Assembly (NCBI GenBank): GCA_032718475.1
Contig: JAUCBJ010000991.1
Location: forward strand, 1 to 34,767
Source of the DNA: Nemertoderma westbladi
Taxonomy: Eukaryota; Animalia; Xenacoelomorpha
Length of the DNA: 34,767 bases
Direction: 5' to 3'
The position numbers and the translations under genes were made by a program. This document shows, in pieces, positions 2,001-34,308 of this stretch. The notes below the pieces were generated by a model. It was not told where the DNA came from and did no database searches. It saw only the letters and a list, made by a program, of their open reading frames with translations. Positions within the stretch are counted from its first letter, which is position 1. Each line of letters begins with the position of its first letter.

Positions 2001-2955
2001 AATTATTTTAAAATAATTGAATTTCTGTTACTTTAGGGTTACTTTGTTACTTTACTTACTTTATTACCGTTATTTGAGCAGTAATCCAACTGATATTTAG
2101 ACCTAATGGTTGTATGGTAGGCCTACGATTTATAAATCGTTAGATTTGATTTATAATATATATATACCCGTTTTAAATGGGTTTTGTCAATGTTTGAAAT
2201 AAATGTTATTATTTCTGGGGAGTAATCACTACACAAAGCGGTGCGCTTTCAGTGAAGTGTTACGTACAGGACACTAAAACAAATAATACTAATTTACCTA
2301 AGTTACTTAATACTACAAATTACGTACAATTCGGGTGAGATTACAATCTCTAAATAAATGCAAAAATTTACAAAAACGCAAATACGAATTTTTAGGGTAA
2401 TTTTACAAGAAGTCTACAAACCAGCCTAACAAAGGGTTAGAAAACCGGTTATTACACGGACAGGGTACTACGGTATTTGAAATAATAAGTAGTAGTAAAT
2501 ACACTGCGTTGTCTAGATAGGAAAATGCCACCGCCTGACGACCTATAGCCGTATCGCTATAGGTTCTACGTTATGTATCACGGAGTGTTCCTACCTAGAA
2601 GTTAATAGAGCTAATCGAATGTGCCTATCAACCACTTTACAACACAAATATAATGGCTACAATAATTACTTCAGGAAAGCACTGTACACTAAACCCTAAA
2701 TTAGGTACGAGTACTTGTACAACAAATAATCAGCAGTTAAATATACTTGAACAGCTAAAAGAACCACGGCATCTGCTGGAGTGACCGATGCACAAAATCA
2801 CCAGTCTTTACCTACGCCGAGCAGCCCGTGTAGTACCGGGGTTAATTTAACTATAACGGTATGTATAACAAACACAATTACTGTAGGAACAAACTTGGGG
2901 ACATGAATGTTGCGAATAATCGCATAAACTCTGAATAATAAATATTACGCAACGC

Positions 2956-3505
2956 GTACAAACCACTTAAACAAAATGCAGACTAAATACTGACAGACTA
3001 CTATCAAGCCTAAACAAACCACGGTATATGCAGACTCCGAAACGATTAGGGAGTATGCGTTCTAACCCAGTAGTACGCCTTATTCTTTAATTGAGGGTTT
3101 ACCTTACTGCATTGGCTGCCTCAACTTCCTAACCTTACTTAATCGGACAGATGCTCTACACACACTACAATCCGTTCAGACTTAATAACAGCCAGACAAC
3201 TATCCAGCCTACAAGTTATCCAAATAAAATTATACGCTACCTGTACAGACTTACACAAACAAAGTACAGACCAAACGATGGCAGACTACTCTCAAGCCTA
3301 AATAAACCACAGTACATGCAGACTCCGAAATGATTAGAGAGTATGCGTTCTAACCCAGTAGTACGACTTATTCTTTAATTGGGGTTTACCTTACTGCATT
3401 GGCTGCCCAAACTTCCTAACCGTACTTAATCGGACAGGTGCTCTACATATACTGAAATCCGTTCAGACTTAACAGCAATCAGACAACAGCTCAGCCTACA
3501 AATTG
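2956..3505. repeat. Tandem duplication, period ~288 bp, two diverged copies
   Basis: cagactactatcaagcctaa at 2994 recurs as cagactactctcaagcctaa at 3282; gagtatgcgttctaacccagtagtacg and taatcggacag occur in both copies. Confidence 0.9.
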
Positions 3506-13066: not shown

Positions 13067-13669
13067 ACGTATTTGGATGATGAGGCGTTGCGCACATTGT
13101 TGGCTCAGATCGAATTAGTTTTGAACAACCGACCATTAACACGTATTTCGCAATCTTCTGAATCAGCTGAAGCTCTCACTCCAGCACATTTCCTCTTCTC
13201 TAAACCAGCCATTACGATACCAATATCCGAAATGGAGGATAATGATCTTCATTCCCGACGCACATGGAAAGTTCTTCAACTCCTGACTCAACGATTCTGG
13301 AACAATTGGTTGATTGACTATTTACCTTCTCAACGCCTAAGATCGAAGTGGTTTTGCCAACGACCAAATCTAAATATTGGTGATATCGTCTTAATTCATG
13401 ACCCTGTACGGCCACGGCGGGATTGGGTTACAGCTACTGTCTTAGAACCTAACTACAGTGGCGATGGCTTAGTCAGAAGCGCTAAGTTGAAGACGCAGAA
13501 TGGGAGTATTCTCGAAAGACCGATACAGAAATTATGCCTCCTTGAACAAGACTCAGGGAAGACAGGTATATATGGTCAATTTCAGCCTCTTCAACATAAT
13601 CAGCCGTGGATCCTTAGTAATATTACAACAAATACCCAACGGAAATCTGTTGACAAACATAAACCGTAA
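13067..13669 (+). pseudogene. C-terminal part of element 1 integrase, same frame, separated by a single TAA (13064-13066)
   Basis: EDET*TYLDDEALRTLLAQIELVLNNRPLT...ALTPAHFL...FWNNWLIDYL...GDIVLI...DGLVRSA...RPIQKLCLLE is the typical BEL integrase tail (DUF5641-like). Confidence 0.9.
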
Positions 13670-14014
13670 ACGCCGTGTTAATAACTTTAATGATTCTACT
13701 TATTAACTGAAACTGTATACAGATAACCGATTAAATATAGCAAAGAATGTGTGTATTATAATTCGTTGTATGTTTAGTATGAATAGATCGTATGATGTTC
13801 ATATTTATCTGATCTAAGAAACTAGCGCATGAATTAGAACAAAATATGACATACATAGAGACATATAAACATAATTCCGGTAATAAATTTAAATTTATTT
13901 AAATTTATTGAGATTTGTTGAATTTATAGTTAACGATAAAATTTTTAATTAATGATCAACTTTCAAAAGTAATTCGAGAAAAATTTAATGACTTAATAAA
14001 ATACATTTTAGACC

Positions 14015-14812
14015 GAAGGAGGGTCGGAGTGTTTAAAAAATAAAAATAACATTTATTATAACTAAAACTGTTTGATTAATTAAAAAATAATTAATCTCTG
14101 AAGTTATTCTTCCTCTTGGTTTCAGTTTGGTGAATTTAAGTTATCACCAATTTGATTACTTTTACATTTTAAGAGGTAATCGCCTGATTGGATTGATTTT
14201 GATTATGAAACAGTGTGATACTATATAACATAATAATAATAAAGAAAAACCCAGGCTATCTCTATGGGTTTATTATTATTGGGGGGAATCGAACGGTGGG
14301 TGAGGGACTAATTGCCTTATCGCCAACGTTGGAATACTCCATTTGACTCCCCACGGCAACGGCTATTTACCTAGACTACGGAACCACAGACGTCCTGGGA
14401 CAAAGATGTTCGTTGGACCGATGCTAGACCTATATATACCTAGACGGATCGGATCTGCGTGACGTGATGGGCGACTCGTTATCTATCTTACCGGTGAACC
14501 AAATAATTATCTCAACCTTTCCTTGGAAATTGCCTGCAGACGGGAAAAACACCGGGTGAATGACCTTCAGGAGTCAGTCCCCGAAAACGGAGTCTATTAG
14601 AATTTCAGAAGTTTGATTAATTTGACGTTGAAATGTTTATATTGTTAATACTTGGTTTGTTGATAATTTCTTTGATATGATAACTTTACTTGCCGGTAAT
14701 ATAGTTTTATTCAGAAAGTCCATTATATTAATCATGTTATTATTCTAAGAATATATATTAAGTTATACATATAGTGCAATAGTGTTTACTGGATCAGCAT
14801 ATTCAGCAAACA
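14015..14812 (+). repeat. Polypurine-tract-like motif followed by the probable 3' LTR of element 1 (start 14030; end uncertain)
   Basis: gaaggagggtcggag immediately followed by TGTTT at 14030; TATA-like ctatataa at 14221; candidate inverted end AAACA at 14808-14812. No second copy in the window to confirm. Confidence 0.5.
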
Positions 14813-15217
14813 TTACCCAGAGAAACCTTGCCTAAATGGGAGCCAGCAAGTACTAAGTATTTCATTTCGAGTTAATCATACTCAATCGTAAATTTTTAGA
14901 AATTTTTGTTGTTGTTGTAATAACGGTGCAATAAGTAAATTAAATGCCTTTGTTAGTTTATTTTCCCTTATTGATAGTTAATTAATTTGAGTTCCAACTC
15001 AAAATATATACACCATATATACTTAACTACAACTACGTAAATAATTAATAATAGTCACAAATATAGTAGTTTACAACAATTATTAATAACGTATTGTGTT
15101 ACCAATATAATTATTTACGTGTGTCATAATGGTGAAGGGATTACGTGCAATTTGTTGTACCACCAGTTTCCTTTTTGTTTATAAATAATTTATAAATAAA
15201 TTCTTTAGGGAGCGGTA

Positions 15218-15262
15218 TGACGTCACCTGGTGGCCTGTAAAATGACAAAATGACACTTCCGG
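15218..15262. promoter_or_regulatory. Cluster of CRE (TGACGTCA), E-box (CACCTG) and ETS (CACTTCCGG) motifs
   Basis: TGACGTCA 15218-15225, CACCTG 15224-15229 and CACTTCCGG 15254-15262, at an AT-rich to balanced composition transition. Confidence 0.3.
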
Positions 15263-15807
15263 TATCCATCAGATAGCAGACAGCAGAAGTGACAGGACAC
15301 GACTGCACTACTCCTGCAACACAGAGAGTAGCCTACCGATGTAGGCATACTGCAGTACTGCTAACTACTGACTGGGAGAATTCATAAAGTTCTTATGGGA
15401 TTTGTTCCCAATCCTACAATAACAGACAACATTACTCACCAGCGCCTAGAACAATCCACCGGGTCCGTCGTCCGTTCTCTATTATATCGTGGGTTACAAC
15501 TTATATTTCCGTCACTCTATTCCGCCGTGGGGAGGGGCTTCACTCGCGGTCAAGCGAGCAAGGTAACTTTGGCAATCAGGTAACTCTATTGGGTTTGGCA
15601 GTTTGGGTATTTATATTAAGGTGCAGGGAGAGCCTGGAGTCTGTTTGGGAGGTTTGGACATCCTTATAAAAGGAGCTCTAGAATTATCAGCCCAGTCAAG
15701 GCTTACACGTGGCCCAGGGGAAGAAATACTTGGAGTACCGCAACCGGCCCTCCTTATTTCCTTCCCGGCTATAGAATCTTCACAAAGGATTCTTTTAGCC
15801 AACGTGA

Positions 15808-18800
15808 TACTACTACTCTTGCTAGCCTCCGCTGATTGTTGATGATTGTGTTGTCCGTGATCATCACCAAATCACCTTTCTTTAAATCTCTAGTGGTATT
15901 TCTCCACTTGCTCCTCCTATGTAATGTGGGTAGGTATTCCTCGATCCACCTCCTCCAGTACTCTGCGCTTATCGCCATAGCGACTTTCCAACTCTGTCGG
16001 GAGTGTATGTCATCTGGGTCTACACCCCGCATGTCGATGGTCGCCAGCCTTTCCATCAGAAAATGGCTGGGTGTTAGCACGTCTAGTGATTCTGGGTCGT
16101 CATTTTCTGGATACAGCGGTCTGCTATTGATGATACCCTCGCACTTAGCTAGCACCATCCTTAGTATATCCTCTGTCACCATGTGGGTGTTCATCAACTT
16201 CGTCATTAGACGCTTGGAACTACCCACAAGTCTCTCGATGCATCCTGAAGTATGCGGAGCATACGGCGTCCTCCTTTCCCACTTCACCTGTCGTCTCCTC
16301 ATGGCTGCCCTGACTTCCTCTCCCTCCAGGATGTCCAAGGCCTCTGCCAGCTCGTTCTCCGCCCCCACAAAGTTGGTTCCATTATTGGAGTATATTACTG
16401 CGATCGTCCCACCTTTGCGGTCTCTGAACCTCTCTAGGGCATTGATGAATGCCAATGCGGTTGCGTCTTGGGCGAGTTCTATTCCTACCACCCTCGTGTA
16501 GTTACATACGAAGATGATGCTGTAGCGTTTCTCCGTGTGTCGCATCACCTTGATCTTTATCGGCCCGAACATATCTACACCACAGTGCGTGAATGGCGGG
16601 TCGTGCTGTCTCACCCTGCTGGCCGGTAATGGCGCCATCTCCTGTATGGCCCGTTCTTTTCTCGTCCGTCAGCAGGTCTGGCACTGCCCCACTACCGCCT
16701 TCACCTTCTTTCTTAGCTGTGTGATCCAGAAGGTCCTCCGTATCTCCGTGAGGGTCTGGTTGGTGCCCCCGTGCAATATCGACTTGTGGGAGTCCCAAAT
16801 GATCTGGTGGACTATCGGCGATCTGTTTGGGATGATAATGGGTTTTGGTGGGATGATGAGGCTGTTGATATTTAGCACTCTAGAGTTCATTACTAGAATC
16901 CCATCATCATTGAGTTGTGGCGACAGCGTGATGAGTTCGCTGTCCCGACGAAGATGTTGTTATTTGCTGACGCGCTCCACATCATCGCCGTAGTTCTTTC
17001 TCTGTTCGTACCGTATCACGGCCTTAGCCGCTCCCTCCAGATCGATGTTTGTTTTCCTCTTGGCATCCTTGCCAACTCCCTTGAGGAAATCCCCAAAGGC
17101 CCTCCAGTACGCTACCAACTTCTTGGTCTTGTACCAGCTTGAGCTGTAGCTGAGTAGCTTATCCGTCGGGTTGTCGTACGGTTCTTCTAATTTTGGTTGC
17201 ACCCCCCTGATTTCCCTCACCATTTGACTATATATCTCTTCACCTTCTGAGTCTTCTCCCTCTTCCCCTGGTGCTACTTCCTCTGAGCCCGGGTCCACCT
17301 TCTTCATTGGTGGCCAGGCCAACCTATCATTCAGGAAGTGTGGCCCGTGCTGCCACAACACTTCCTTCTTTAAGAAAGTGTGGCATGCCACGCCCCTCGA
17401 TAACAAGTCTGCTGGGTTCTTATCCGTTGGGCAGTAGTGCCACCTTTCCAAGTCTGTCGTCGCCATTATTTTGTCCACCCTATTTGCGATAAATATAGGG
17501 TATCTCGTCCTCTCATTGTGCAGCCAACCAAGCACTACCATGGAGTCCGTCCAGTAGTGTGTTTCCACTATGTTGGGAATAGTGTCCATCAAGTAGGCTG
17601 TGGCCCTTACTCCTAGTCTTGCAGCTGTCAACTCGAGTTTCGGGACTGATGCTGAATCTGGCGGCATCGACTTTGCTTTGCTGAATGCAAGTCTGGGCTT
17701 ATGAGCCCCCTTTCGTTGTACTAGGTAGAGTGCCACTCCGTACGCTTCCAACGATGCATCGGAGAACATGTGTAGATCCAAATTCGTCATGTCCCCATCT
17801 GGGAAATACACGCGTGGCATGCTGTATGTCCCCATCTGTTCTAAACTCTCCGTCCACTTACTCCACTGCTTGCTGATCTCTTCCGGAACCTCTGTATCCC
17901 ATTCGTCCTTTAATTTATATACTTTCTTAAGTATATGTTTCCCCGTGACTAACAGTGGGGATGCTAGGCCTAGGGGATCGTATATCCTTGCTATGTACGA
18001 TACATAGCCCCTCTTTGTGTGGATGTCCGCGCCCTCCTGGCTCAGTTGATACTTGAACTCATCTGTCTCCCGGTTCCACACGATCCCCATGGCCTTCTGC
18101 TGAGACTCCACTCTCTTGTTTGCCATGTCCTGTCACTTGGCTGTTGTATGGTTATCCATGGTCGACTCCGGTCGTCTGCCCTCTATGGCTTTCATAAACC
18201 CCTCTGAGCTGGATTGGAACTTGGTCAGGTTAAACCCGGATCCCTTCAGGATGTCGCGAACCTCGCGCCCTGTATCCAGTAGTTCTTTAACCGTGTTTCC
18301 AGACTCCATTCCATCGTCTACATAGAAGCCGCGTCGAATCATATCGACCGCTTTGGCTCTATACTTCCCTTCTTTCCCCTCTGCTGTATCTCTTACAGCC
18401 ACAGTCATTGTAAATGAGGACGACTTCGCCCCCATGTTCTGCACCACCATCTTGTACATTGGTATTGTCGACGGTTCCTCATCGCCGTTGTACCATAGGA
18501 AGCGCTGGCTGTCACTATCCTCCTCTGTCACCTCTGTCACATGGACTTGGTTGAACATGCCTTCAATATCGCAGGTAAAGGTGTGTCTCCCATTTCTAAA
18601 TCTCAGTAGGACCTCGATTCCCGAGTTATAGATATTTGGGCCCTCCAGCAGATAGTCGTTTAGGCACTTGCCGTTGGTTTTAGCCGATGCGTCAACTACC
18701 ATCCACAATTTACCTTTCTTTGGATCTTGAGCCACGTGAAGTGGCAGGTAGTATGTCCTGTCCGTGTCCGGTTCGTCGACCGGCAATTCCACGGCCCATC

Positions 18801-20121
18801 CTTTCTCGAGGTACTTCCTTATCGTCTTGTGGATGTACTCATCCTTCTCGGGGCTCTGCTCTATCGACTCCTTCACACTTTGTATAGCTTGTTTATCCTC
18901 TACCAAGGTTCCGACCCCGGTCTCCTTTAGTCCCTCAAAGTCCTGTCTGAGCAGTCTCCTGAGCTGCTCCTCCACTCCTTCATCTTCCATCTCCATCATA
19001 GTTCCCGCAAACATGCACCCTGATGTCTCCGACATCCTAAACGGAATCTTGGTTTTAATTGGGCCGCTTAGCGTCCACCCGAATGGTGTTAAAATTGCCA
19101 TCGGGTCACGCTGCCTGTCTTCGCCGAAGACCGTCTGCATTCTCTCGTGGGCCGTCGGGCAGTCCATTCCCACTATGATGGATACTTTCCTAATGTCCAC
19201 CTCTGGTATCGAGAAATCGATGCTGTCCAGGAATCTGTATTGCTCGACCTCGATGTTGGTTGGTCGCCTGGCGTTGATATTGATCGATTCTATTGCCTGG
19301 ATGGGGTCGATGGTCGTCCAATAGTCGCATCCCGGTGCTATCGCAGCTATCTCGCACCGTCCCGTCCTCATCTCTAGGACATCATCTTTGCTGGAGATGG
19401 TTGTTACCGCCATCCTACTTGGCCTCGTCTTTAGTCCTATTTCTTCAGCCACCCAATTCTCCATCAATGTGAAGGCTGCTCCACTGTCGACCAGCATCAG
19501 CGTGGTTACTGAACGACCGCCTTCTCCGATCACCCTCACTGGTACTACCCCGAGTAGTACCGTTCCTCTTTTCTTCGCCCCTACGGTGCTTGTTGCCATT
19601 GTCTGTCCTTTGCCTTGACCGAACTTAATTGGTGTTTCTTTGCACTGATCAGCTTTGTGTCTGCCCGCCACACATCGATGACAGATTCCACTCTTCCTTG
19701 CATATTCTACCTGATCTTGTTTGGGCAACGCTTGCCAATATTTGCAGTTCATGGTCTGATGAAGTGCGTTCGAATGCAATTGGCATTTGTTGTTTGGATT
19801 ATAGCCATCCCTATACAGTGCGCTGCGTATCGCACTTACGTTCGTACCTAGTTCCCTACTGTTCTTATTTTTTGGGTTCGGCCTACTGGGCGTGTTGGGG
19901 TTGTGTTTGTTTGTGTTGTTATTTTGCCCCTGTCCACTCCATGATATGGCCCTACCCCCGGCTACATGTGGACTAGCAGTCCCCTGCGTCGCCGCGTATG
20001 GCAGCGATTGTCTAAGCTTTGGCAATGCGTTTGCCATGATGTGTTCTGGTTTTTGCCTGTTATATTCAGTCTTTGGCCCCTTCCCCAGACTATCCTCGCT
20101 ATAGACTGGGTCCGTGATCAA
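15808..20121 (-). pseudogene. Element 2 Cys-His boxes, protease, RT, RNase H and integrase, broken by stops and frameshifts
   Basis: CQLHSNALHQTMNC, CHRCVAGRHKADQC, LVDSGA, CDIEGMF, YVDDG, LHMFSDAS, PKLEL, YWTDS, H(KSIL)HGG...CQTC, GVDMFGP, SNNGTNF (catalytic D changed to N), IERLV, across ORFs 18133-20121, 16960-18126, 16669-16890 and 15769-16638. Confidence 0.92.
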
Positions 20122-22437
20122 CTCGTGCTTCGTAGTTGAGGAAGTTCGACATTTCCTCTAGGCCCGGTTCCGCACCCTTCTTCTCCCGGGTGGAGAAGGC
20201 GATCTTCCTCCATTTGTTGCGCAGCCAGATCGGCAGTGCCTGCGCTATCGTGGTGATATTATTAGATGCGTTGAGTTCGTATGGCGCGTCTAGTGTTTTC
20301 AGCACGATTAACGCCTTCTCGACTTTGTTCGCAAACATCTTTATGCTAACGGGGTTATCCTGTAGGCCACCCGATGTTATACCCCTCAGGGTCTGCCGGA
20401 TGATCTTGGCCGGGTGCCCGTATTCCCTGTCTAGGGCCCGCCATGCAGTCGTGAAGCCACCCTCGATGCCCTGATACTGCCTCACGATGTCGTACGCTGG
20501 GCCTCCTGTATATACCTGTAGATATTTTAGGCACTCTGCCTGCGTCAGGTTCTTAGTTAATATCTCGTTGCTGTACATGCGCCGAAATTGCAGGTATTCT
20601 TCCGGCCTACTTCCGTCGAATTTAAATGGCTCTACGGGTGGTAGCTCGATTCTGGTCTTGAGCTGCATCGATTAGTGTAGCCATTCCCATCGCCTGTGCT
20701 TCCAATGGGTTCGAAGGATGCTGTACAGATTCTCCCGTTGGGTGCGGCCCGCCCGTCCGGCCTGTTGCCTTCCGTTGCGTCGGATATACCATTGGGGGTA
20801 ACGGCCCCCTCCATATTTCCGTGTCGCAAGATCTGTTCTCGTCCAGGGGGTTCGATGTTCTTATTTCTGTTTGAGTGTATTGTTGATATTGTAATGGGGG
20901 AATGTCACCCTGCCCCCCCCCCCCCCCCCCCCCCCACCGGTGGTATGTTTGGTACTGGGGTTGATGTTAATATATTGGGGCCCATACACCTATCCGCAAT
21001 AACTCTCCCCTCCCCTGGATATATGTTATGTCCCTGCATGTTATAGTCATACTGCTGTGCTGGTACCGGTATAGGCCTATCCACTTCTGGCCTACCTACC
21101 GGTATATACTCCGCGACTTCCGGGTCTAATCCGTCGTCCGCGCTACCCTATCGCCTACACTATCTCTCCCAGCATGGCCTATAGTATGTGCAGTAAGGCC
21201 TACAGTATGTCCTGCAGTCTGTATGTGTCCCTCTGGACCGAAGTTTAACCTTCTCGAATAATCCAAGAAGTCCTCCCCGCGACTACCGTACCCTCGATCG
21301 GCAGCTATATCCCGTCGGGAAGTTTCTCTTCGATCCCCTCTCCTATTCTCGTCCTCGTACCGGTACGCCCTGTACCCCTCTCTCGGCGTATAGTACACCT
21401 CGCCAGGTTGCGTCTCTCCGGGGCGATGGCAATCTCCCGGAGTTCGACCCCACTGACTCTCCAACTCCATCTCTACTACCGACGGCTCGCTATCCGTCCT
21501 CGCTCTCCGGTCGCTCGTAACGACGCTTCTTCTACTCTCTTCTCTTCTTCTCTCTTCAGTGTAGCGTCCCCGCTCGTGAGATCTCTCGTCGACCTCCCGG
21601 TTAAACTCCACTGTTCTTCTTCCCTCTTCTGACTGGGCTCGACGTCTCATCGCTCGCCCGCTCGCGACGCCAACCTCCCTCTCTCTAGCCGGTCGCACGC
21701 CGCTGGGGATATTCGTAATCCCCCTACTATTCTCCGTCGCCGGGTGCTGCGGTTCACCTAATTCGCCCTGCGCATTATCCGCCGACGCCTGTGGGACACT
21801 CTCTGCCCCCCCCCCCTCTCGCCGCTAATCTCTCGTTGTGGGGCTCCTGTAGCCCCCCCCCCCCCCCCCCCCCCCACTCGCCACCTATCTACTTCACTAT
21901 CTCTCACTTCGCCTCTACGCCCCTCTCTAGTCGACGCACTATCTCTACTGCGGCTGGGTCTATTCACCCCCGCCTCTCCCTCTATCACTGCGTGGCCTGG
22001 CAGGCTCCCGTTGGGGTCTCTCACCCCAGCTACTCCCTGCGTATTAACTATGTGGCCTTCCAGGCCCCTGCTGGTCGGACCACCTACATCTGCCACGTTT
22101 ATATTAATAGCACCATTATTAACATTATTAACAAAATTATTCGGATTATTTGAATTATTCTGTACCGAGTTTGGATTATTATTTAAATTATTTTGTATAT
22201 TTAGATTAGAATCGGGAATATTTTGCTCGTTTGAATTAAAATTATTATTTAGATTATTTTGCGTATTTAAATTTAAATTATTCGAATTACTTTGTGTATT
22301 TGAATTATTTTCTATATTTGGGTTTAGATTATTATTTAAATTATTTGGATTATTATGTGCATTTAAATTAGGAATACTCGGATTTAAATTATTATTATCG
22401 GGCAAAATATTATTTCCTGGAATAAAAGTTTGATTAG
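20099..22437 (-). pseudogene. Element 2 gag, downstream part: Asn-rich and Arg/Glu-rich low-complexity region, then gag core
   Basis: ORFs 21758-22405 (NNLNNN repeats), 21126-21698 and 20099-20668 (LPPVEPFKFDG..EEYLQFRRMY...LKYL...AWRALDREYG, DUF1759-like); some frameshifts lie at poly-C runs. Confidence 0.85.
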
Positions 22438-22442
22438 GGTTG
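22438..22442. repeat. Left target-site duplication GGTTG of element 3
   Basis: GGTTG directly precedes TGTGAG at 22443; the same 5-mer follows TCACA at 31961-31965. Confidence 0.92.
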
Positions 22443-23023
22443 TGTGAGGGGATTCAATTCCGCTCCACCAACCCCATAAAGTTGGGAAGTGGCGTTTTAA
22501 GCAATATTGGGGAGTACGAGGTTGATTAGAATCAACCTCATATCACCCCCAATAAAGGGGGACAACACACAGCCCCAAAGAGCCACACACAAAAGAGGTT
22601 ATAGGTCAAACCTCTTGGAGAGGGAAAGTGACAGCAGTGGGGGGAAACACTCCCACAGAGGTGGGAGCCGAGAATTAGGTTATTGGCCAATAGGGGACAA
22701 GGAAAATGCATCCGCTAAGTAACAAAGCCACAAGTAGAGTAGAGGTGAATATATTTTACCAGTTAGTGTTTGTATCCTATTCAGTTATCTCAGTCACGTA
22801 GGACAGTACGGTGACACTTTAGTACGGTCACCGCCGTCACCAACATTTATATTATCAATTTACCGGTACAACATCCAAGTTATCTCATGCTATCATATTC
22901 TATATTGTATACTATATTTCGACCCTATTAATAATACTGGAACGACAACAACAAACTCTTTTCACAACCTTGCGGCGATGCGTAACTAAAATCAACTGGT
23001 CGGGATCCTCTGATCCCGTCACA
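22443..23023 (+). repeat. 5' LTR of element 3 (581 bp)
   Basis: Direct repeat of 31426-31960; TGTGA/TCACA inverted ends; TATA-like at ~22750 and initiator TCAGTT at 22781. Confidence 0.95.
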
Positions 23024-23037
23024 GTACTAAAGTCACC
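23024..23037 (+). other. Non-tRNA primer-binding site candidate GTACTAAAGT(CACC), complementary to R-region loop 22816-22825
   Basis: Abuts the LTR terminal CA, lacks TGG, and is the exact reverse complement of ACTTTAGTAC in the LTR hairpin loop. Confidence 0.75.
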
Positions 23038-23100
23038 TATTACGAAGCATAGACAACTGCCAGAACTGTGACTGCCAGCCACCAGGAAGAAAGTTAAAGA

Positions 23101-24090
23101 ATGAGCGAAGAAGCCCGAAATCTAGAGGGAGAGACGACACCACCATGGACCCCAGACGATACCAACGAAACGATCCGTGAGGCCGCGACGCGACGGTATC
23201 GACCCGTAATGCCAAACTCGCCGGAAAGGGACGATCCGGTAGCCCAAACGGGGGGCGGCCATCTACCAGGACGAGAGGACGAGTCGACGCACGACGGCGG
23301 ACGACGTACCGATGTCGCCGGCCCGCCACAGGCCGAGGGCGACGGACAGCCCACCGGAACGGTGACAGTGGGGCCGCCGGTACGACGCCGAACCAGGAGG
23401 GGAGGAGAGGTCGGCGACGAGGACGTCGGAACCAGTGACCGGCTCCAACGAGCCTACAATGCAACAAAGAAACAACTAAAGGAGGCTAGAGAAGGAGTAA
23501 AATAGACCAACGGAATTTGAACCGGCGACTAGGTGAGTCGAATAAACACTTTAGCTACCTAGTTCGCTTCGGGCAGGGAGAAATAGCCAGTGAGAGAGCG
23601 AGGGGGGTCGCCACCGAACTATTTGAACTGTGGCGGTCCGGGATAATGGAGCCCCAAGTGGTGTACATAGGGCCGTATTTAGTGGATGCTAGGGGAATTA
23701 AGTTAGTGGGTTGGGCAGACCCGCACGAGGGCGAATCCGAGATTAACCCCGAGGATTCAGTCTCGTCGGTTAGCGAGAACCCCAGAAAGTTGGGGAAAGT
23801 TAGTAGGACAGAGAGGCGACGTCTGGCGTCTGGCGTGTCAGTTGGACATGGTGGCGCTAGACCAGAAAGAGTTAGAGAGGCAGTTGGAAGAGGGAACTGC
23901 GTTTTTGGAAAGAGAGAGAGAACTGGCGAGAGAGATGGTGGCGCTAGACCAGAAAGAGTTAGAGAGGCAGTTGGAAGAGGGAACTGCGTTTTTGGAAAGA
24001 GAGAGAGAACTGGCGAGAGAGAATAAAGAGAGGGCTGAGAGGGTCGCGAGAAACTTTAGAGAGTGTGAGGAGATAGAAATAAGGGAAGGA
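23101..24090 (+). pseudogene. Element 3 gag N-terminus (stops, frameshifts, truncated by an internal deletion)
   Basis: Homologous to 33422-32493 (RLQRAYNATKK, GVATELFELWRSG, PYLVDARGIKLVGWADPHEGE, LDQKELERQL). Confidence 0.9.
23848..24021 (+). repeat. Perfect 87-bp tandem duplication in the gag coiled-coil
   Basis: atggtggcgctagaccagaaag...ctggcgagagag starts at 23848 and again at 23935. Confidence 0.95.
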
Positions 24091-27000
24091 AAGGAGCCCC
24101 GAGAAGAATGAGTACATTCATAGAACAATAAGAAAGTATGTCGAGAAAGGATGGGCCGTGGAGTTGCCGGTCGACGAACCAAACACAGATAGGACCTATT
24201 ACCTGCCACTTCACGTGGCTCTAGACCCGAAGAAAGGTAAACTGCAGATGGTAGTTGAAGCATCGGCTAAGACCAACGGCAAATGCCTAAATGATTATCT
24301 GCTGGATGGTCCTAATATCTATAACTCAGGAATCGAGGTCCTGCTTAGATTCAGAAATGGGAGGCACGCCTTCACTTGCGACATTGAAGGCATGTTTAAC
24401 CAAGTCCGTGTGACGGAGGAGGATAGTGACAGCCAGCGCTTCCTATGGTACAGCGGCGACGAGGAACCGTCAACAATACCGATGTACAAGATGGTGGTAC
24501 AGAATATGGGTGCCAAGTCGTCCTCATTTACGACGACTGTGGCTGTGAGGGATACAGTAGAGGGGAAAGAGGAGAAATATAGCGCCAAAGCCGTCGATAT
24601 GATTCGACGCGGCTTCTATGTAGATGAGGGAATGGAGTCTGGAAACACGGTTAAAGAACTACTGGATACAGGGCGCGAGGTTCGCAACATCCTGAAGGGA
24701 TCCGGGTTTAACCTGACCAAGTTCCAATCCAGCTCAGAAGAGTTTATGAAAGCCATGGAGGACAGGAGGCCAGAGTCGACGATGGATAATCCCACGACAG
24801 TCAAGGGACAGGACATGGCGAACAAAAGGGTAGAGTCCCAGCAGAAGGCACTAGGGATCGTGTGGAACCAAGAGACAGACGAGTTCAAGTACCAGCTGAG
24901 CCAAGAGGGCGCGGACATCCACACAAAGAGGGGCTATGTATTGTACATAGCAAGGATATACGATCCCCTAGGCCTAGCATCCCCACTGTTAGTAACGGGG
25001 AAACAGATACTTAAGAAAGTATATAAATTAAAGGACGAATGGGATACAGAGGTCCCGGAAGAGATCAGCACTCAGCAGTGGAGTAAGTGGACGGAGAGTT
25101 TAGAACAGATGGGGACATACAGCATGCCACACGTGTATTTCCCGGATGGGGACATGACGAATCTGGATCTACACATGTTCTCCGATGCATCGTTGGAAGC
25201 GTACAGAGCGGCACTCTACCTAGTACAACGAGAGGGGGCTCATAAGCCCAGACTTGCATTCAGCAAAGCAAAGTCGATGCCGCCAGATTCAGCATCGGTC
25301 CCGAAACTCGAGTTGACAGCTGCTAGATTAGGAGTAAGGGCCACAGCCTACCTGATGGATGCTATTCCCAACATAGTGGAAACACACTACTGGACGGACT
25401 CCATGGTAGTGCTTGGTTGGCTTGGAAAGGTGGCACTACTGCCCAACGGACGAGAACCCAGCGGACTTGTTATCGAGGGGCGTGACATGCCACACTTTCT
25501 TGAAGAAGGAAGTATTGTGGCAGCATGGGCCACAATTCCTGAACGATAAGGTGGCCTGGCCACCGATGAAGAAGGTGGACCCGGGCTTAGAGGAAGTAAC
25601 ACTGGAGGAAGAGGGATGAGATTCGGAAGGTGAAGAGATATATAGTCAGATGGCGAGGGAAATGAGGGAGGTGCAACCAAAATCAGAAGAACCATGCGAT
25701 AACCCGACGGATAAACTCCTCAGCTACAGCTCAAGCTGGTACAAGACCAAGAAGTTGGTAGCGTACTGGATAGCCTTCGGGGATTTCCTCAAGGGAATTG
25801 GCAAAGACACCAAGAGGAAACTAAACATCGATCTGGAGGGAGCGGCCAAGGCCGTGATTCGCTACGAACAGAGAAAGAACTACGGCGACGAAGTGGAGCG
25901 CGTCGGGGTAAACAACAACATCTTCGACGGGACAGTGAGCTCATCACACTGTCGCCACAACTCAATGACGGCGGGATATTAGTAATGAACTCCAGAGTGC
26001 TAAATAACAACAGCCTCATTATCCCACCAAAACCCATCATCATCCCAAATAGATCGCCGATAGTCCACCAGATCATTTGGGACTCCCACAAGTCGATATT
26101 GCACGGGGGCACCAACCGGACCCTCACAGAGATACGGAGGACCTTCTGGATCACACAACTGAGAAAGAAGGTGAAGGCGGTAGTGGGACAGTGCCAGACC
26201 TGCCGACGGACAAGGAAGGAGCGGGCCGGACAGGAGATGGCGCCATTACCAGCCAGCAGGGTGAGACAGCACGACCCGCCATTCACGCACTGCGGTGTAG
26301 ATATGTTAGGCCGATAAAGATCAGGGTGATGCGGCACACGGAGAAGCGCTAACGCATTATCTTCATATGTAACAACATACTAGTGTTCTCCGTGTGTCAT
26401 CAGGCGGTAGGAATAGAACTCGCCCAAGACGCAACCGCATTGGCATTCATCAATGCCCTAGAGAGGTTCAGAGACCGCAAAGGTGGGACGATCGCAGTAA
26501 TATACTCCAATAATGGAACCAACTTTGTGGGGGTGGAGAACAAGCTGGCAGAGGCCTTGGACATCCTGGAAGGGGAGGAAGTCAGGGCAGCCATGAGAAG
26601 ACGACAGGTGAAGTGGGAGAGGAGGACGCCGTATGCTCCGCATACTCTAGGATGCGTCAAGAGACTCGTGGGTAGTTCCAAGCGTCTGATGACGAAGTTG
26701 ATGAACAACCACATGGTGACAGAAGATTTACTAAGGACGGTGCTAGCTAAGTGCGAGGGAATCATTAATAGCAGACCGCTATACCCAGAAAATGATGACC
26801 CAGAATCATTAGATGTGCTGACACCCAGTCACTTTCTAATGGAGAGCCCGGCGACCATCGGCATGTGGGGTGGTGTAGACCCAGACGACATACACTCCCG
26901 ACAGAGTTGGAAAGTCGCTAAGGCGATAAGCGCGGAGTACTGGAGGAGGTGGGTTGAGGAATATCTACCCACACTTCATAGGAGGAGTAAGTGGAGAAAT

Positions 27001-27193
27001 GCCACCAGAGAGTTAAAGAAGGGTGATTTGGTGATCGTCACAGATGACACCATCATCAACAATCAGTGGAGTTGTGGGCACTTACTCCGGTGAGGACGGA
27101 AGAGTCCGAATAGGTGGCAAGATAGGAGCGAAAGATAGGAAGACCCACAGGAGGGCTGTAGGAAAGTGCTGCGTACTAGAGGGCGCACCTTAG
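24091..27193 (+). pseudogene. Element 3 RT, RNase H and integrase (decayed)
   Basis: Closely similar inverted copy of 18855-15808; RT motif mutated to YVDEG; several frameshifts; ends GEDGRVR...RRAVGKCCVLEGAP* at 27193. Confidence 0.92.
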
Positions 27194-27360
27194 TGTTTAG
27201 TCGTCCAAGTGTTGGACTGAGGGGGGTGGGATTGAGGGTGAGACGCCCTTCCCACACAAAATATAAAAAATAATAATAAAAATAAAATAATAAGAAAGAG
27301 AGTAAGAGAAAGGAAAGTAATAGTACACAGTAGGTACGTAGTAAGTAAGTAGGCAGATAG

Positions 27361-27765
27361 AAGTTAGTAAGAGTAGTAAGAGGGTACGTAGTACCGTTAA
27401 TAAGAGTTAGTGGAGTTAGTTAGTAAGAGGGTACGTAGTACCGTTATAAAGAGTTAGTGGAGTTAGTTAGTAAGAGGGTACGTAGTACCGTTAGTAAGAG
27501 TTAGTGGAGTTAGTTAGTAAGAGGGTACATAGCACCGTTAGTAAGAGTTAGAGGAGTTAGTTAGTAAGAGGGTACGTAGTACTGTTAGTAGAAGAGTTAG
27601 TAAGAGGGTACGTGTAGTACCGTTAGTAGAGGAGTTAGTAAGAGGGTATGTGTAGTACCGTTAGTAGTAAGAGTTAGTGGTAGGAGGGTATGTAGTATAT
27701 AGCAAGAGTTAGTAAGAGTTAGTAGAAATTAGTTAGAAAGTTAGCAGAGTTAGTAGCGAGTAGTG
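27361..27765 (+). repeat. Minisatellite between pol and ORF3: 47-bp unit decaying to 36-42 bp, about 8 copies
   Basis: gagggtacgtagtaccgtta-like cores near 27380, 27427, 27474, 27521, 27568, 27604, 27642 and 27684, separated by gagttagt subrepeats. Confidence 0.9.
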
Positions 27766-28116
27766 AGAGGGGGGCATGTGGGTACAGCAGGACAGATCGT
27801 GTAGGCTACACGAGACATACTACTGTACTGCACAGCCCGTAGAGTAGGCCAGAATATGGATTAAAAGAAGAAATAATCCATTAATAGATACTGATAGCAC
27901 AGTTGTAGGATTAAAAATAAATATTAAAATCAAAATTAGACAAATTATGGTAACAGTAGGCAAGATATTCCAGAACATAATTAAAGTAACTGACAAAATT
28001 AGGGAATTAGGCAATAACCTAGCATTCAGAGAGAGATAGGCCATTATCGGACCGTACAGACCATCCTAACTACATCACTCACTTATATTGTGCCTTGGCA
28101 AGGCCCCACCTTATAG

Positions 28117-30681
28117 GTGAGCAATCGGGAGAGTTCGAAATAGCGGAGAAACTTGTTTGAAAGAGAAAGGCAGAGTTGGGAGAAAAGGAGATACTGGTGG
28201 ATTTCACCGAAAGGCATCCGGAAGAGAAGACGAGGGGATACTATGAGCGGTTAGAGAAGGGTCACAAGGAGCGAGCGCTGCAGGACCATTTCAGGGAGGT
28301 GCACTAACAGCGGCTGATCAGGACCTATGGGACACCGTCGCTAGACAATGCGATCTTCGAGCATTTCCACTATGTGGTAAAGGGAGACGAGGCGAAGTTC
28401 AGGATACCGAAGTATCCAAAGGAACCACCGAGAAAGGACTGGAAGAGGTTCGTAGAGTCCATCAGCAGTGGAGGATACATGGTTCTAGACAATGAGGGGA
28501 CCATGGAAGACGAGGAAGGTTCGAGAAGAGGAGCGACGGGGTCGGCCAGAACCATACTCCTGCATTTGGCCGCGCCAAATGGGGATATATTCCTGTTCAA
28601 TCTGGGAACGTATGGGAAGAAGAACGGGCCGAAGTTAAACCGGTTGCCAAAGGCGGTGCAGAGCCTAGTAAGAGAGAAGTTGACGATAAAGGTGGGATCG
28701 GCGATCCGCGACGATGCGGAGAGGATCATCGGTCCGGAGACCCCCAACCTCCTGGACATGCAAACGGTCTACATGGCTATGACAGCGCCAGACAGGTTGG
28801 GACTAGTAGAGAACGCGGACCATTGTGGAGCGGTGGCGATGGGCCAGCTAATGGGGCTGGTATGCCACAAGCCAATGGACTGGGGTAAATTCAGGGAGGA
28901 GTACGGAGCGGAGTTGGCGAACTCGCTGAAGTGGCGAGCGAGACCGGGGAAGCAAGAGGTGTATCAATTCCGGAGAGGAGATTCAGGAGGTATATCAGAA
29001 GCGATATATCCTGCAGGAGGACAGAATAATGATAGGTTTGCTAAACCTATTCATGACCGTGGTTATCAAGAGAGAACCAACGGCATTTCTGCTATCGGGA
29101 TCACCCCTGAACTACAGAAGAGCCTTCAAAGTGGCTTTCGAGGGTCTGGTAGACCACCCGGGTCTGAAGGGGGGGTCGGTATATTATAACTGCCAATATC
29201 TAGTAGACGGGGAGGTGGATACGCCATATCAGAGGTGGGAGCAGCTAGAGGCGGATAGACGAGAGGTGAAGCGATTGGAAGAAATTGCTAGACGAGAAAG
29301 GAGAGAGGCAGAAGAAAGGGAGGCGGAAACTAGAGGAGAGGGATACGGGTTCGAGGAACAGGCGGCCTTAGACAATCTACACTGGACATCAGGGAGTTCA
29401 GGCGAGTCTCTAGGGCGAGAATTGGGGTGGACGGTAGGATCACCGAAACAGTCGACATCGGGGTTGCAGACGACGCCCATACCAGCAGGCGCCGAGGGCA
29501 ATTTCGCGGAGAGAAGGCCATGGGAACTGGAAGGATGGAGAGTCACGGGCGAGAGCCAAGGTGGGAAGGGACACAGTGGATCCACCAGGATACCGGGTTT
29601 GGAGCCACTCCCAGAGGAGGACGAGGATGACAATGAGTTCGGAGAGATGCCGCCCATCGGGAGAATCGGCCACTCGGAAACGGACTGGGTTGGCGGGAGA
29701 GTGGTGACGGCCAGCGGGGCGAGAGCCTTCTGGGATAGACCTGGCAAGCGGGCCTGGGTGCATGAGGAGCCGGTGATGGATTTCGCGGGGAGCACCATCG
29801 GGTTGGGCGAGCAACCGGGAACGGCACCACGGGTAGTATTCAGAGAGACAATGCCCAGGCGAGGCGAGGAGATAGACGTGGACAGGGTCGCTAACGTCCA
29901 GAAGTTCGCTTACAAGCGACTCCATAGACAGAGGAGATCGCTTGGGACGAAAGACGACATAGGGCAAGAGGCATTGGTACTCGGCTGCGATTATTGCGGG
30001 AGGCAAACTCACCAGGAAAGGAGCTGCTTGTACCGATTCCAGAAGGGGACGAGTTACCTCTACTGCCGCGAGTTGAGTCATAGGATGGGGGCGTGTCCAC
30101 GGTTGCACAACCGGTGTTCTAAGTGCAACTTCCGGGGGCACTATGGATGCCAGTGCAACTGGATGGATGACGAGGAGAAGTTTAGGATCTTCGAGGAGTG
30201 GGCCGATGCCGGCGCCATGACGCGGCAGCGGATGAAGGCCCAGGAATTCCGGTGGGGCTTCTTTAACATCAACCAGGAGGCCCACCTGGAAATCATTAAA
30301 CGGAGACTTCCGTTTACTTGTCAGGAAGTGTCAATGGCGGCGTCGTATGCCGGAGTGATAAATACGCAGAGGTATTTAGACAGGTGGACGCCACAGAATC
30401 GGGGAGATTTCAGAGATTTCTTGGTGGAGCATGTGCCTCGGGCTATAAAGGTGATCCTATGGGACGCCACTTGGGGGAAGCAACAGTGCCATTTGGAGGG
30501 GCTAATAACACCAGCACCCAAGGAGTCCACGACGGGAATCAGCAGAGAAGTGATGGCAAGGATCAGGAACCTTAAAGGGGATAAGAACAAGGGAGCGGCA
30601 ACGACCAGGAAGCGACTGAGGGAGGAGGACGACAGAGGGAAGGAACTGAGATGGTTCCCAAAGTCAGGAGGAGCGAACTAG
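28117..30681 (+). pseudogene. ORF3 of element 3 (~850 codons reconstructed): DEDDy/WRN-like 3'-5' exonuclease domain, acidic linker and three CCHC zinc knuckles
   Basis: ExoI-like YMVLDNEG; LLHLAAPNGDIFLF; LPKAVQSLVREKLTIKVGSAIRDDAERI (ExoII-like); NLLDMQ; after a +1 frameshift (28930-28980) QKRYILQED (ExoIII-like). Knuckles CDYCGRQTHQERSC, (Y)LYCRELSHRMGAC and CSKCNFRGHYGCQC. Frame extends upstream through TGA 28158 and TAA 28305. Confidence 0.75.
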
Positions 30682-31417
30682 AACTTAGAGGGGGAAATGT
30701 GGAGATGCCTGGAAGGCACCACACGTGAAGTAATACGAACTCCTAAGTGCAAATTTAATTAAAAGTGCAATTAGTATGTACGTATGAAATAATCATTAGT
30801 ATATAGTCATATAGCAAATATAAAGTAAGTACTATAGTCATGCAACCTTTTTTCCAATTAGCTACTGGGACTGGGGGGCCAATTGACTGTGACAGGAGGA
30901 TGGGAGACTAGACGTAGCACTACACACTTGACGCTTCTTAAGTGCGACGGCACGGAAGGGGAGGGTGAGGCTCGCCAGGAGCAAATAGGAATCGAGTATA
31001 GAACGCGTGGAGAGAAGGCGAGTGCAATTCAAGTGTGGGGGGGGGAGGAGTAAGAGGCAGATTGAGGGACAGGTGGTCCGGAAGTTAGAGTGAAGGTAGA
31101 AGAGAAGTAGAGGAGAATCAGGGTGAGAGTGGAGAAGTTAGAGTCAGTCAGAGCGGAGTTAGAGTGGAGAGAATAGTGGGGAGATAAAATTGTGTGAGAG
31201 AAATCTACAATTTTCGCGACCCGAGACGCCAGATGTCTTGGTGCAACATAGGTGAAGTTGCACCAAGAGAGGGTAGCAATATCATACCCATAGGGAGCAG
31301 CCTGGAAAGCCGGCTCCAAGAAAGACAACTCCACCTCACACCCGATAGTAGATCGGGTTCCAGCAGAATTGAAGCACACTCGTTGGTGATGGTATCTTCT
31401 CACCGGGAAGATAGCAT

Positions 31418-31425
31418 GGGGGGAG
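31418..31425 (+). other. Polypurine tract of element 3
   Basis: GGGGGGAG directly before the 3' LTR TGTGAG. Confidence 0.8.
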
Positions 31426-31960
31426 TGTGAGCGGATTCAATTCAGCTCCACCAACCCCATAAAGTTGGGAAGTGGCGTTTTAAGCAATATTGGGGAGTAC
31501 GAGGTTGATTACAATCAACCTCGTATCACCCCCAATAAAGGGGGACAACACACGGCCCCAAAGAGCCACACACAAAAGAGGTTATAGGTCAAACCTCTTG
31601 GAGAGGGAAAGTGACAGCAGCGGGAGGGAAACACTCCCACAGAGGTGGGAGCTGAGAATTAAGTAGAGGTAGAGTAGAGTTAAGTAGAGTAGAGGTGAAT
31701 ATATATTACCGGTTAGTGTTTGTATCCTATTCAGTTATCTCAGTACGGTGACACTTTAGTACCATCACCGCCGTCACCAACATTTATATTATCAATTTAC
31801 CGGTACAACATCCAAGTTATATCATGCTATCATATTCTATATTGTATACTATATTTCGACCCTATTAATAATACTGGAACGACAACAACAAACTCTTTTC
31901 ACAACCGTGCGGCAATGCGTAACTAAAATCAACCGGTCGGGATCCTCCGATCCCGTCACA
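31426..31960 (+). repeat. 3' LTR of element 3 (535 bp)
   Basis: Direct repeat of 22443-23023 with roughly 16 substitutions by eye plus two larger indels; TATATA at 31700 and TCAGTT at 31731. Confidence 0.95.
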
Positions 31961-31965: not shown

Positions 31966-33422
31966 TCTACTACGGTACTATTAATGTTAACGTCTTCTAA
32001 CGTATTGTTATTACCCCACCCCCCCCCCCCCCCCCCCCACCCCCCGCCCGTACGGTTACACCAGTCTAGGGTCTGTTGTCCGGTCCCTGTAAGTGGGGTA
32101 TTAACAAACGTTTCCATAACCTCTGGCCCCTCGTAAACACTACCCAAGCCAGCCTCACACACTGTTAGTCCCAACTGCGCCAGTTCTAGTCTGCGCTTCT
32201 GTTTGGCCTGATATTGCATAAGCCCCCTCAACCGAGAATGCATATCATCCCGCATGCGCTTTCCCGCTCGCTCTCTCTCTCTCTCTCTATCTTCTCGCAA
32301 ACTCTGGTTCGCTAACTCTGTTTCTCTTGCCATCCGCTCTCTACGCTCGCTCTCTACTCTCGCCTCCCGCTCTCTATATTCATTTGTTTCTCTCTCCACC
32401 CTCGCTGCCTCTCTCGCTTCTCGTTTTATGCGCTCGTTCTCCACTCTCGTTTCTCGCTCTTTACGTTCGTCTGCCTCTCTCACTTCTTGCTCTCAACAAT
32501 TTCTCGCTACCCTCTCAGCCCTATCTCTACACTCCCTCGCTAACTCTCTCTCTTTCTCTAGCAATGCAGTTCCCTCATCCAACTGCCTCTCTAATTCTTT
32601 CTGGTCTAGCGCCACTATGTCTAATTGACACGCCAGATCTATCTCTATCTCTATCCCATTATAGGATGTAGCGGACTTATCGGTCGCGACGGACTCCCGT
32701 CGCCTCTCTGTCCTACCAATTTTCCCCCGCTTTCTGGGGTTCTCGCTGACCGACGAGACCGAATCCTCGGGGTTAACCTCGGGTTCGCCCTCGTGCGGAT
32801 CCGCCCAACCCACTAACTTAATTCCCCTAGCATCCACTAAATATGGCCCTACGTACACCGCTTCAGGCTCCATAACCCCGGATCGCCACAGTTCGAATAG
32901 TTCGGTGGCGACCCCCCTCGCTCTCTCACTCCCCAGTTCTCCCTGCCCGAAACGGACTAGATATCTGAAATGTTTATTCGACTCACCTAGCCGCTGGCTC
33001 AACTTCCCCTGGTTTACCTTCTCTCCCTCTTTGGCTTCCCTCAATAGTTTCTTGGTGGCGTTGTAGGCCCGTTGAAGCCGATAGCTGGTCCCGATGTCCT
33101 CTTCGCCGACATCTCCTCCTCCTCTCCTGGTTCGGCGTCGTACCGACGGCCCCACCGTCGCCGTTCCAGTGGGCCGTCCGTCGCCCTTGGCCTGTGGCTG
33201 GCCGGCGACTTCGGTACTTCGACTGGCATCGTGTGTCGACTCGTCCCTTCCTTGTGGTAGATGGCCGCCCTCCGCTTGGGCTGCCGGATCGTCTCTCGTC
33301 AGCGAATCCGGCGTCGTGGGTCGATACTGTCGTGTCGCGGCCTCGTGGATCGTTTGGTTGGTGTCGTCCGAGGTCCGCGGCGGTGTCCTCTCTGCCTCTG
33401 ATAGTTGGGATCCTGTGCTCAT
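31961..33422 (-). pseudogene. Element 2 gag N-terminus (one in-frame TGA at 32493-32495), interrupted by element 3
   Basis: ORFs 32493-33422 and 31956-32483 share a frame; Glu/Arg coiled-coil; joins 22437 in frame as ...STVVDN|PNQTFIPGNNILPDNNN... Confidence 0.88.
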
Positions 33423-33459
33423 CTTTGTTCTTTAGGCAGTCACAGTTTTGTGGTAGCTG

Positions 33460-33471
33460 GGTATCTTACAC
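33460..33471 (-). other. Non-tRNA primer-binding site candidate GTGTAAGAT(ACC), complementary to the R-region loop of the element 2 LTR
   Basis: Plus-strand ATCTTACAC 33463-33471 is the reverse complement of GTGTAAGAT 33675-33683, the loop of stem CGGTGAC/GTCACCG. Confidence 0.75.
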
Positions 33472-34055
33472 TGTGACGGGATCAAGGGATCCCAACCAGT
33501 TTGTCAAACTACGCGTCACTGTGGTATTGGAATAAAAGAGTTTGTTGTTATCTCTTCGACGCTTGGTAGTTAATATTGATAAATGGATTGATAATATATG
33601 TAATAGCACATTTGATATATCGACAATAGCAGTATACTGGTAGGTAGGATATACAATATGTAATGACGGTGACGGTGTAAGATGTCACCGGTCTGCACTC
33701 AAACTAATGACTGGAACAACTGAATTGGTATCTCAATACATTGATAATATATGTAATCATTCCTACATTACTGTGGCCTTTGTCCAGTGGATGCTTTTCC
33801 CCGCTCCTATTGGTTGATAACCTACTTCACGCCTCTCACCTCTGTGGCAGTGCTTCCCCCCCTTGTTGCTATTTGCCCTCTCGAGGAGGTGAGACCTCTA
33901 ACCTCCCTTTGTGTGGCTTTTGGGGTTTGTGTTATCCCCGTTATTGGGTGTGATACGAGATTGGTTGTTATCAATCTCGTATCTCCAATATTGCTGAAAA
34001 AGGCGCCACTTCCCAACTTTATGAGGGTAATGAGGTGGAATTGAATCCGCTCACA
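33472..34055 (-). repeat. 5' LTR of element 2 (584 bp), a diverged relative of the element 3 LTRs
   Basis: Minus strand begins TGTGAGCGGATTCAATTCC and ends GATCCCGTCACA, like the element 3 LTRs; TATA, TCAGTT and the hairpins are conserved. Confidence 0.92.
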
Positions 34056-34308
34056 TTTTTTATATTAGTGAATGTTCTAGAACCTTAGTTTTTTTTTTAT
34101 GGTATATAGCTATTATTTTTTACTAGCTAGTAATTTTTGGAAATTATTTTGGTCATTAATATATTCTTCAACAGTTTAACCTGAAATATCATGGACTTTC
34201 ACATTTTTTATAATTTCTAAAAATACTAGCTAGCAAAAAACACTACCGGTAGCTATCATAAAGAACATATCTACTAATGTTCTAGAACTTTCACCAATAA
34301 CAAAAAAA
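34056..34308. repeat. AT-rich imperfect foldback (arms ~34056-34148 and ~34209-34308), possible MITE remnant
   Basis: Left arm attagtgaatgttctagaac...ttttttactagctagta..gaaattat matches the reverse complement of the right arm (attggtgaaagttctagaac...ttttttgctagctagta..gaaattat). Confidence 0.7.

Follow-up and report, generated by a model that had tools for sequence, protein, structure and literature searches.

How does an LTR retrotransposon start minus-strand synthesis when no tRNA-type site follows its 5′ LTR? The question is raised by a 34,767-nt stretch of Nemertoderma westbladi DNA (assembly GCA_032718475.1, contig JAUCBJ010000991.1), hereafter the window, which carries three BEL/Pao elements, E1, E2 and E3, recognized through the Pfam families Peptidase_A17, DUF1759 and DUF5641. 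A first-pass annotation of the letters had stated that TGG follows neither 5′ LTR, and we find none within 20 nt of either end. In E2 and E3, the post-LTR bases are complementary to a hairpin loop of the element's own LTR, and this loop, not a tRNA, probably serves as the minus-strand primer. The parts of the three elements are:

22443–23023 (+): E3 5′ LTR, 581 bp, TG...CA, delimited by a second LTR and a 5-bp target duplication
31426–31960 (+): E3 3′ LTR, 535 bp, with a purine tract just before it
24083–27093 (+): E3 RT, RNase H and integrase remnants in several frames (Pfam Peptidase_A17, Integrase_H2C2 and DUF5641; self-BLAST)
34055–33472 (−): E2 5′ LTR, 584 bp, identical to the E3 5′ LTR at 431 of 548 aligned positions
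15769–22442 (−): E2 gag, protease, RT, RNase H and integrase remnants, past the E3 insertion (Pfam)
6014–13669 (+): E1, third BEL/Pao element, a 2,350-codon frame followed by a 200-codon DUF5641 frame

E3 spans 22443–31960 on the plus strand (9,518 bp) between copies of a 5-bp target duplication; its two LTRs agree at 509 of 534 aligned positions, and the element is nested within E2, its minus-strand relative. The LTR end of E2 was placed by homology to E3, and no E2 3′ LTR was found within the window. Pfam matches in E2 run in the order DUF1759, Asp_protease_2, RVT_1 (weak), Peptidase_A17 (E 6e-42), rve and DUF5641, which is the protease, RT, RNase H, integrase order of BEL/Pao; four acidic RNase H-type motifs are present, whose roles in that enzyme we assume. 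The lengths of the three LTRs and of E3 and the purine tract are likewise those of BEL/Pao elements. E2 carries stops and frame changes, while E3 has split frames and is without the gag-protease part present in E2 (about 4 kb absent); because both are broken, neither shows current activity. Compared with E2 (15827–18856 and 32490–34055), E3 (22443–27071) is about 90% alike in pol and 74–79% alike in LTR and leader, and E3 is possibly a mosaic. Clades within BEL/Pao include Pao, BEL, Tas, Sinbad/Sailor, Suzu, Flow and Dan. Our tree of 92 rows, which held no named references for BEL/Pao clades and from which a length filter dropped two loci (L073 and L086), puts E3 on a long (1.64), weakly supported branch.

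The RT-RNase H region of E1 is 30% identical to that of E3. A purine tract and a TG occur near 14030, and since no matching 5′ LTR was found within the window, E1 cannot be used as a control. Several other features were observed in the window: a 251-bp imperfect palindrome (34056–34306; 69%) that directly adjoins the E2 5′ LTR and is perhaps a fold-back or miniature DNA element; a 47-nt tandem array (27374–27608) and an 87-bp duplication (23845–24018), both in E3; a 288-bp tandem duplication (2940–3507); and, on the minus strand at 2–1648, an open 549-codon frame that contains Ala/Glu/Lys repeats, has no Pfam match and runs past the window edge.

The candidate primer and its site comprise the following in each element:

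22809–22815 and 22827–22833 (+): arms of the E3 hairpin, seen in sequence, in folding and as a depth peak
22816–22825 (+): E3 loop, candidate primer segment, +34 to +43 from the putative transcript start
23024–23033 (+): E3 candidate primer-binding site; a 4-nt extension to 23037 pairs with the hairpin 5′ arm
33667–33690 (−): E2 hairpin, whose loop (33683–33675) is the candidate primer, +39 to +47 from the putative start at 33721
33471–33463 (−): E2 candidate primer-binding site, with a 3-nt extension to 33460

The E3 site is the exact complement of its loop over 10 nt and the E2 site that of its own loop over 9 nt, both as first described, and in each the pairing can reach past the loop into the 5′ arm, by 4 nt in E3 and 3 nt in E2. 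The loop had been placed in a 7-bp stem, which holds for both elements with one correction: an extra base lies between the loop and the 3′ arm in each. The matches begin at a homologous place (LTR offset 373 in E3 and 372 in E2). The E3 LTR end was fixed by the second LTR and the target duplication, without using the pairing, and the predicted primer 3′ end abuts it. In the E3 3′ LTR the loop is intact (31753–31762), with one mismatch in the stem. No tRNA gene was found in the window, and the four Rfam matches there all fall far under the gathering score.

Loop and site had also been said to change together. Three substitutions and one indel separate the E2 loop from the E3 loop, and each is mirrored at the site; the comparison amounts to a single contrast, not many. 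Swapping LTR and site between the two elements leaves matches of under 4 nt and of 4 nt at offset 0. Such a match arose in 3 of 5000 dinucleotide-shuffled LTRs for E3 and 18 of 5000 for E2.

Sequencing runs of the same species provide further variants. Three of the six listed runs contain part of the stretch; they come from two studies, and none is RNA. Contigs aligned at 80% likeness number 262, 184, 163 and 8 in four runs, two of which are from one sample. In three runs, contig depth is concentrated at just two places, the R hairpin and the U5 hairpin, and falls more than tenfold between them: bin peaks on E3 reach 3,059–10,101 and 8,418–18,416 at the two hairpins vs 71–429 between, a contig depth that is not a copy number, and E2 shows the same shape. 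We read this as many diverged subfamilies sharing R-hairpin and U5-hairpin modules. Among the variants listed for E3, the sole loop substitution (22817) and the sole site substitution (23032) are pairing partners, and the pair is kept, although the variants are unphased. Their shares are close to each other in one sample's two runs (18.1/18.6% and 23.8/22.5%) and far apart in the third run (6.9/31.7%), and they may partly reflect E2-like copies. In E2, where depth is low, the loop variants 33681 and 33678 are common and have no site partner among the variants listed. The within-organism evidence for co-change is suggestive, not decisive.

The first-pass annotation had proposed looking for the same complementarity in relatives. 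The closest proteins are 26–37% identical, and those of the relatives compared here 31–37%. An alignment of 25 sequences retrieved 87 loci, of which 34 have a distant direct repeat, 13 of these ending inside the contig, and 10 were kept; L039 was dropped for a duplication inside pol, and L046 and L066 for having no recognisable LTR end. For L031, L060 and L062 we placed the LTR end manually on inspection of the sequence, a choice that may favor a match. None of the 10 relatives has TGG in its first 8 post-LTR bases, and nine carry a self-complement of 10–12 nt, each with its own letters: six across a GT-AG intron and three contiguous. Under identical rules, 5 of 132 non-cognate pairings among the 12 elements (E2, E3 and the relatives) reach 10 nt. 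The tenth relative, L086, has just 8 nt of exact match, likewise across an intron and with one mismatch, and the L060 match requires a 9-nt offset; in the other 10 of the 12 elements, no more than 4 nt separate the helix end from the LTR end. The segment ends in AC in 11 of the 12. Because L060 and L067 group as sisters and a single host may have contributed several loci, the relatives amount to fewer than 10 independent cases.

The putative introns, 77–186 nt long, lie within the LTRs of L010, L021, L030, L031, L062 and L073, and their predicted removal by splicing would create an 11–12-nt complement to the post-LTR bases. We found no intron in the E2 or E3 primer segment, and none among the contig joints listed. 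The two pieces of L008 (LTR 1–326 and 6693–7103) differ at the segment, which is contiguous in the 3′ piece and preceded by an acceptor-like end in the 5′ piece; possibly the assembly collapsed two copies of one family here, one with the intron and one without.

A hairpin around the segment does not carry over to the relatives. A 7-bp flanking stem is confined to E2 and E3; the 10 relatives have 0–5 bp, and when flanks are swapped, 4 of 130 pairs give a stem of at least 7 bp. Because the hairpin is not general and most relatives build the segment across an intron, the window represents one variant of a wider BEL/Pao pattern. Thus, of the original proposal that this lineage primes from its own RNA, the complement, its position at the LTR end and the relatives all speak for self-priming, but not for self-priming as a feature of this lineage alone.

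Broader scans were also made. For 42 of the 87 loci, scanned without a known LTR end, self-complements of at least 10 nt occurred in 15 real sequences vs 19 reversed controls; candidates in L024, L029 and L066 were left uncounted because the scan did not beat this control. An LTR-end pattern scan gave no matches among metagenome contigs and two among viral contigs, judged unrelated on reading, and a protein scan of viral contigs gave none. L083–L089 are BEL/Pao coding contigs filed inside bacterial MAGs and are likely host DNA contamination.

With these data in hand, could the match be due to chance, to assembly error or to a neutral local inversion that both elements inherited? The two share ancestry, and matches of at least 10 nt and at least 9 nt occur at 0.19% and 0.52% of the roughly 34,100 window positions per strand, so that about 0.2–0.5% of positions carry such a match. 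Such an origin is nevertheless very improbable, given the four changes mirrored between E2 and E3, the nine of ten distant relatives that are alike with other letters, and the same modules in other runs.

The surrounding R and U5 features in E3 bear on how the pairing would be made:

22750 to 22786 (+): E3 TATA-like box (22750) and initiator-like TCAGTT, with the A at 22783 as putative +1
23002–23017 (+): E3 U5 hairpin, 6 bp with a 4-nt loop; pair probability 0.99–1.0; highest depth
23065–23072 (+): E3 leader segment complementary to 23018–23025; pair probability 0.06

TATA-like boxes and initiator-like TCAGTT motifs are promoter-type signals. The box lies at −33 from the putative start in the E3 5′ LTR, −30 in E2 and −31/−33 in the E3 3′ LTR. 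The U5 hairpin is, as described earlier, kept in both elements (33493–33478 in E2), with a probability of 0.95 or higher in each. A helix between U5 and leader had also been suggested. The complementary segments exist (23018–23025/23065–23072 in E3 and 33477–33470/33446–33439 in E2), but their pair probability is just 0.06–0.09. The last two bases of this helix are the first two of the primer site, so the two pairings would compete.

Folded from the putative start, E2 has a lowest-energy structure that includes the loop–site helix (probability about 0.42 vs 0.58 for the hairpin), and the state with hairpin and U5–leader helix lies 0.8 kcal/mol above this minimum. The loop–site helix is absent from the lowest-energy fold of E3, where it has a probability of 0.04–0.19 and costs 2.9 kcal/mol over the minimum. 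Alternative states lie within 1–3 kcal/mol in both, and whole-leader z-scores are −0.16 (E3) and −3.38 (E2). Cognate duplexes reach −17.1 (E3) and −12.6 (E2) kcal/mol vs −6.6 and −11.0 when swapped; the latter value, from the E2 arm and loop with the E3 site, comes from the arm alone and is near E2's own. The folding model allows a strand switch without demonstrating one.

Alternative folds so nearly equal in energy would also suit a structural switch in packaging, dimerization or translation, with synthesis primed by something else, e.g., a tRNA fragment or a protein. The distance from the LTR end to the first ATG, 77 nt in E3 and 49 nt in E2, fits a switch of this kind, and half-tRNA primers occur in copia lineages, according to the available part of PMC6317226. 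We consider a switch of this kind unlikely, since in 10 of the 12 elements the helix stops no more than 4 nt from the LTR end, where a primer must end, and no TGG site is left. Moreover, the sites vary by element yet match their own LTR, a pattern not expected from a small set of tRNA fragments.

For the self-priming reading that we favor, we propose the following course. The transcript would start at TCAGTT (22783 in E3; 33721 in E2), placing the segment in the RNA interior, within nucleotides 20–47. The segment would at first be held in the 7-bp hairpin and the primer site partly held by the U5–leader helix; the loop would then pair with the site, and as this pairing spread to the 5′ arm it would push the 3′ arm out of the stem. 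The RNA would next be cut just past the final C of the loop, with the element's own RNase H as the most likely enzyme on the model of Tf1, and the resulting 3′ end would be flush with the LTR end. RT would copy U5 and R only back to the cut, the upstream part being restored from the 3′ repeat copy, and during plus-strand synthesis the primer would serve as template, so that the site would take on the loop sequence. Site rewriting of this kind would explain the joint changes of loop and site. Copying only to the cut also predicts that an intron upstream of the segment's 3′ end survives, where copying a spliced RNA to its cap would presumably erase it. The putative introns retained in the relatives are in line with this prediction.

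The primer might alternatively be supplied in trans, by short capped RNAs (paused or prematurely ended transcripts of any LTR copy, or small RNAs) that end at the loop and anneal to full-length RNA, with no cut in cis. Promoter-proximal pausing covers a range that includes +43 and +47, the segment ends in E3 and E2, and donors would be abundant, given how many contigs contain the hairpin. Six of the 10 relatives, however, need a 77–186-nt intron removed, which is too far for pausing; the spacer is 13 nt shorter in the E3 3′ LTR; and strict element-by-element matching fits cis pairing better. Priming in trans thus seems to us improbable, slightly more so than a structural switch.

Taking self-priming in cis together with the intron-spanning relatives, it is conceivable, though we would lean slightly against it, that a broad part of BEL/Pao has swapped tRNA priming for an internal, AC-ending segment licensed by splicing in most relatives or, in E2 and E3, by a hairpin-loop toehold strand switch, with reverse transcription gated by RNA processing or refolding. 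If a large share of BEL/Pao self-primes, self-priming would occur in all three LTR superfamilies. LTR finders that rely on a tRNA site may then miss such elements, and silencing by tRNA fragments at the site would presumably not apply. The model predicts exact RNA 3′ ends, at 22825 in E3 and 33675 in E2. What the window newly provides is the hairpin-held, intron-less form and, in E3, an extra frame with likeness to a WRN-type exonuclease:

28308–30681 (+): E3 extra coding region after integrase, two overlapping frames, with a WRN-like 3′–5′ exonuclease part and CCHC-like knuckles

By language-model features, the first part of this region matches ESM Atlas clusters of PF01612 (Werner-like exonuclease) at 0.95, with 10 of 10 named matches in one clan, and the CCHC-like knuckles lie at 29986 and 30115. 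Pfam, PDB and phmmer/sequence searches gave no support, tblastn found no match among the 87 loci, and a single-sequence model has a pLDDT of 39.8. One further match, P0121, is a TPR protein and was rejected as nothing real. That the exonuclease-like product trims the primer end is a speculation to which we give little credence. The bdelloid LTR retrotransposons Juno and Vesta, as described in the available part of PMC5408684, carry a DEDDy exonuclease in ORF3; E3 resembles them in having a 3′–5′ exonuclease-like frame after pol, and differs in that theirs are rotifer families for which that part of the source mentions no link to priming.

The elements fit, and depart from, the standard picture of their own superfamily. 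ICTV describes Belpaoviridae as having LTRs of 0.2–1.2 kb, a length of 4.2–10 kb and an 18-nt site to which tRNA-Arg or tRNA-Gly pairs by its 3′ end, with tRNA-primed replication that is called poorly understood (PMC8742986). E2 and E3 share LTR size, domain order, purine tract and Pao-type Pfam families with Belpaoviridae (Semotivirus) but have no tRNA-type site; they are BEL/Pao-type by their proteins, not standard tRNA-primed semotiviruses. The first-pass annotation had named no precedent in BEL/Pao, and our literature search, which covered open main texts outside Repbase, GyDB and subscription journals, found no report of self-priming there. C. elegans Cer7 is said to have been proposed to carry its own tRNA-like primer; the search found no paper on it. 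Among BEL/Pao surveys, PMC3118150 makes no mention of PBS, primer, tRNA or priming, PMC6238403 none of PBS, primer or tRNA, and PMC554778 refers to PCR primers only. The available portions of PMC8220671, PMC5443660, PMC3601003 and PMC6934838 treat a generic site, or self-priming for other groups only.

Outside BEL/Pao, self-priming has been predicted for plant Tcn1 (gypsy) and TAR elements including Houba/Osr-1 (copia), under a rule of at least 10 bp of complement starting 0–5 bp after the LTR (PMC6317226, in the part available). E3 satisfies this rule and E2 is 1 nt short. Those plant elements are gypsy and copia, not BEL/Pao, and the accessible part of PMC6317226 mentions neither hairpin nor intron for them. 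The copia elements Osser, Bryco and Bianca are half-tRNA-primed, with a site complementary to an internal tRNA segment.

The closest parallel is the Tf1/sushi group of Ty3/gypsy, in which Tf1, Tf2 and Tj1 of Schizosaccharomyces have a site complementary to their own LTR over about 11 nt, use no tRNA and have a proposed RNase H cut (PMC7175516, PMC4600332 and PMC5341516, each in the part available). In Tf1, pairing with the site involves the first 11 bases, and RNase H makes the cut (PMC7175516, available part). E2 and E3 are alike in having a site complementary to their own LTR directly after that LTR. They belong to another superfamily and carry Pao-type protein families only; because Ty3/gypsy (chromovirus) proteins are not found in them, they are not members of Tf1/sushi. 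A U5-IR-like structure is reportedly required in Tf1; candidate counterparts in E2 and E3 would be a U5 hairpin of probability 0.95–1.0 and a U5–leader helix of 0.06–0.09. Whereas the Tf1 primer is the RNA 5′ end, that of E2 and E3 would be internal, at +34 to +47 as judged from promoter-like motifs, which would be a departure from the Tf1 model. The arrangement in the window is thus a likely self-primer that would act like Tf1 outside the Tf1 group, in an intron-less form held in a hairpin.
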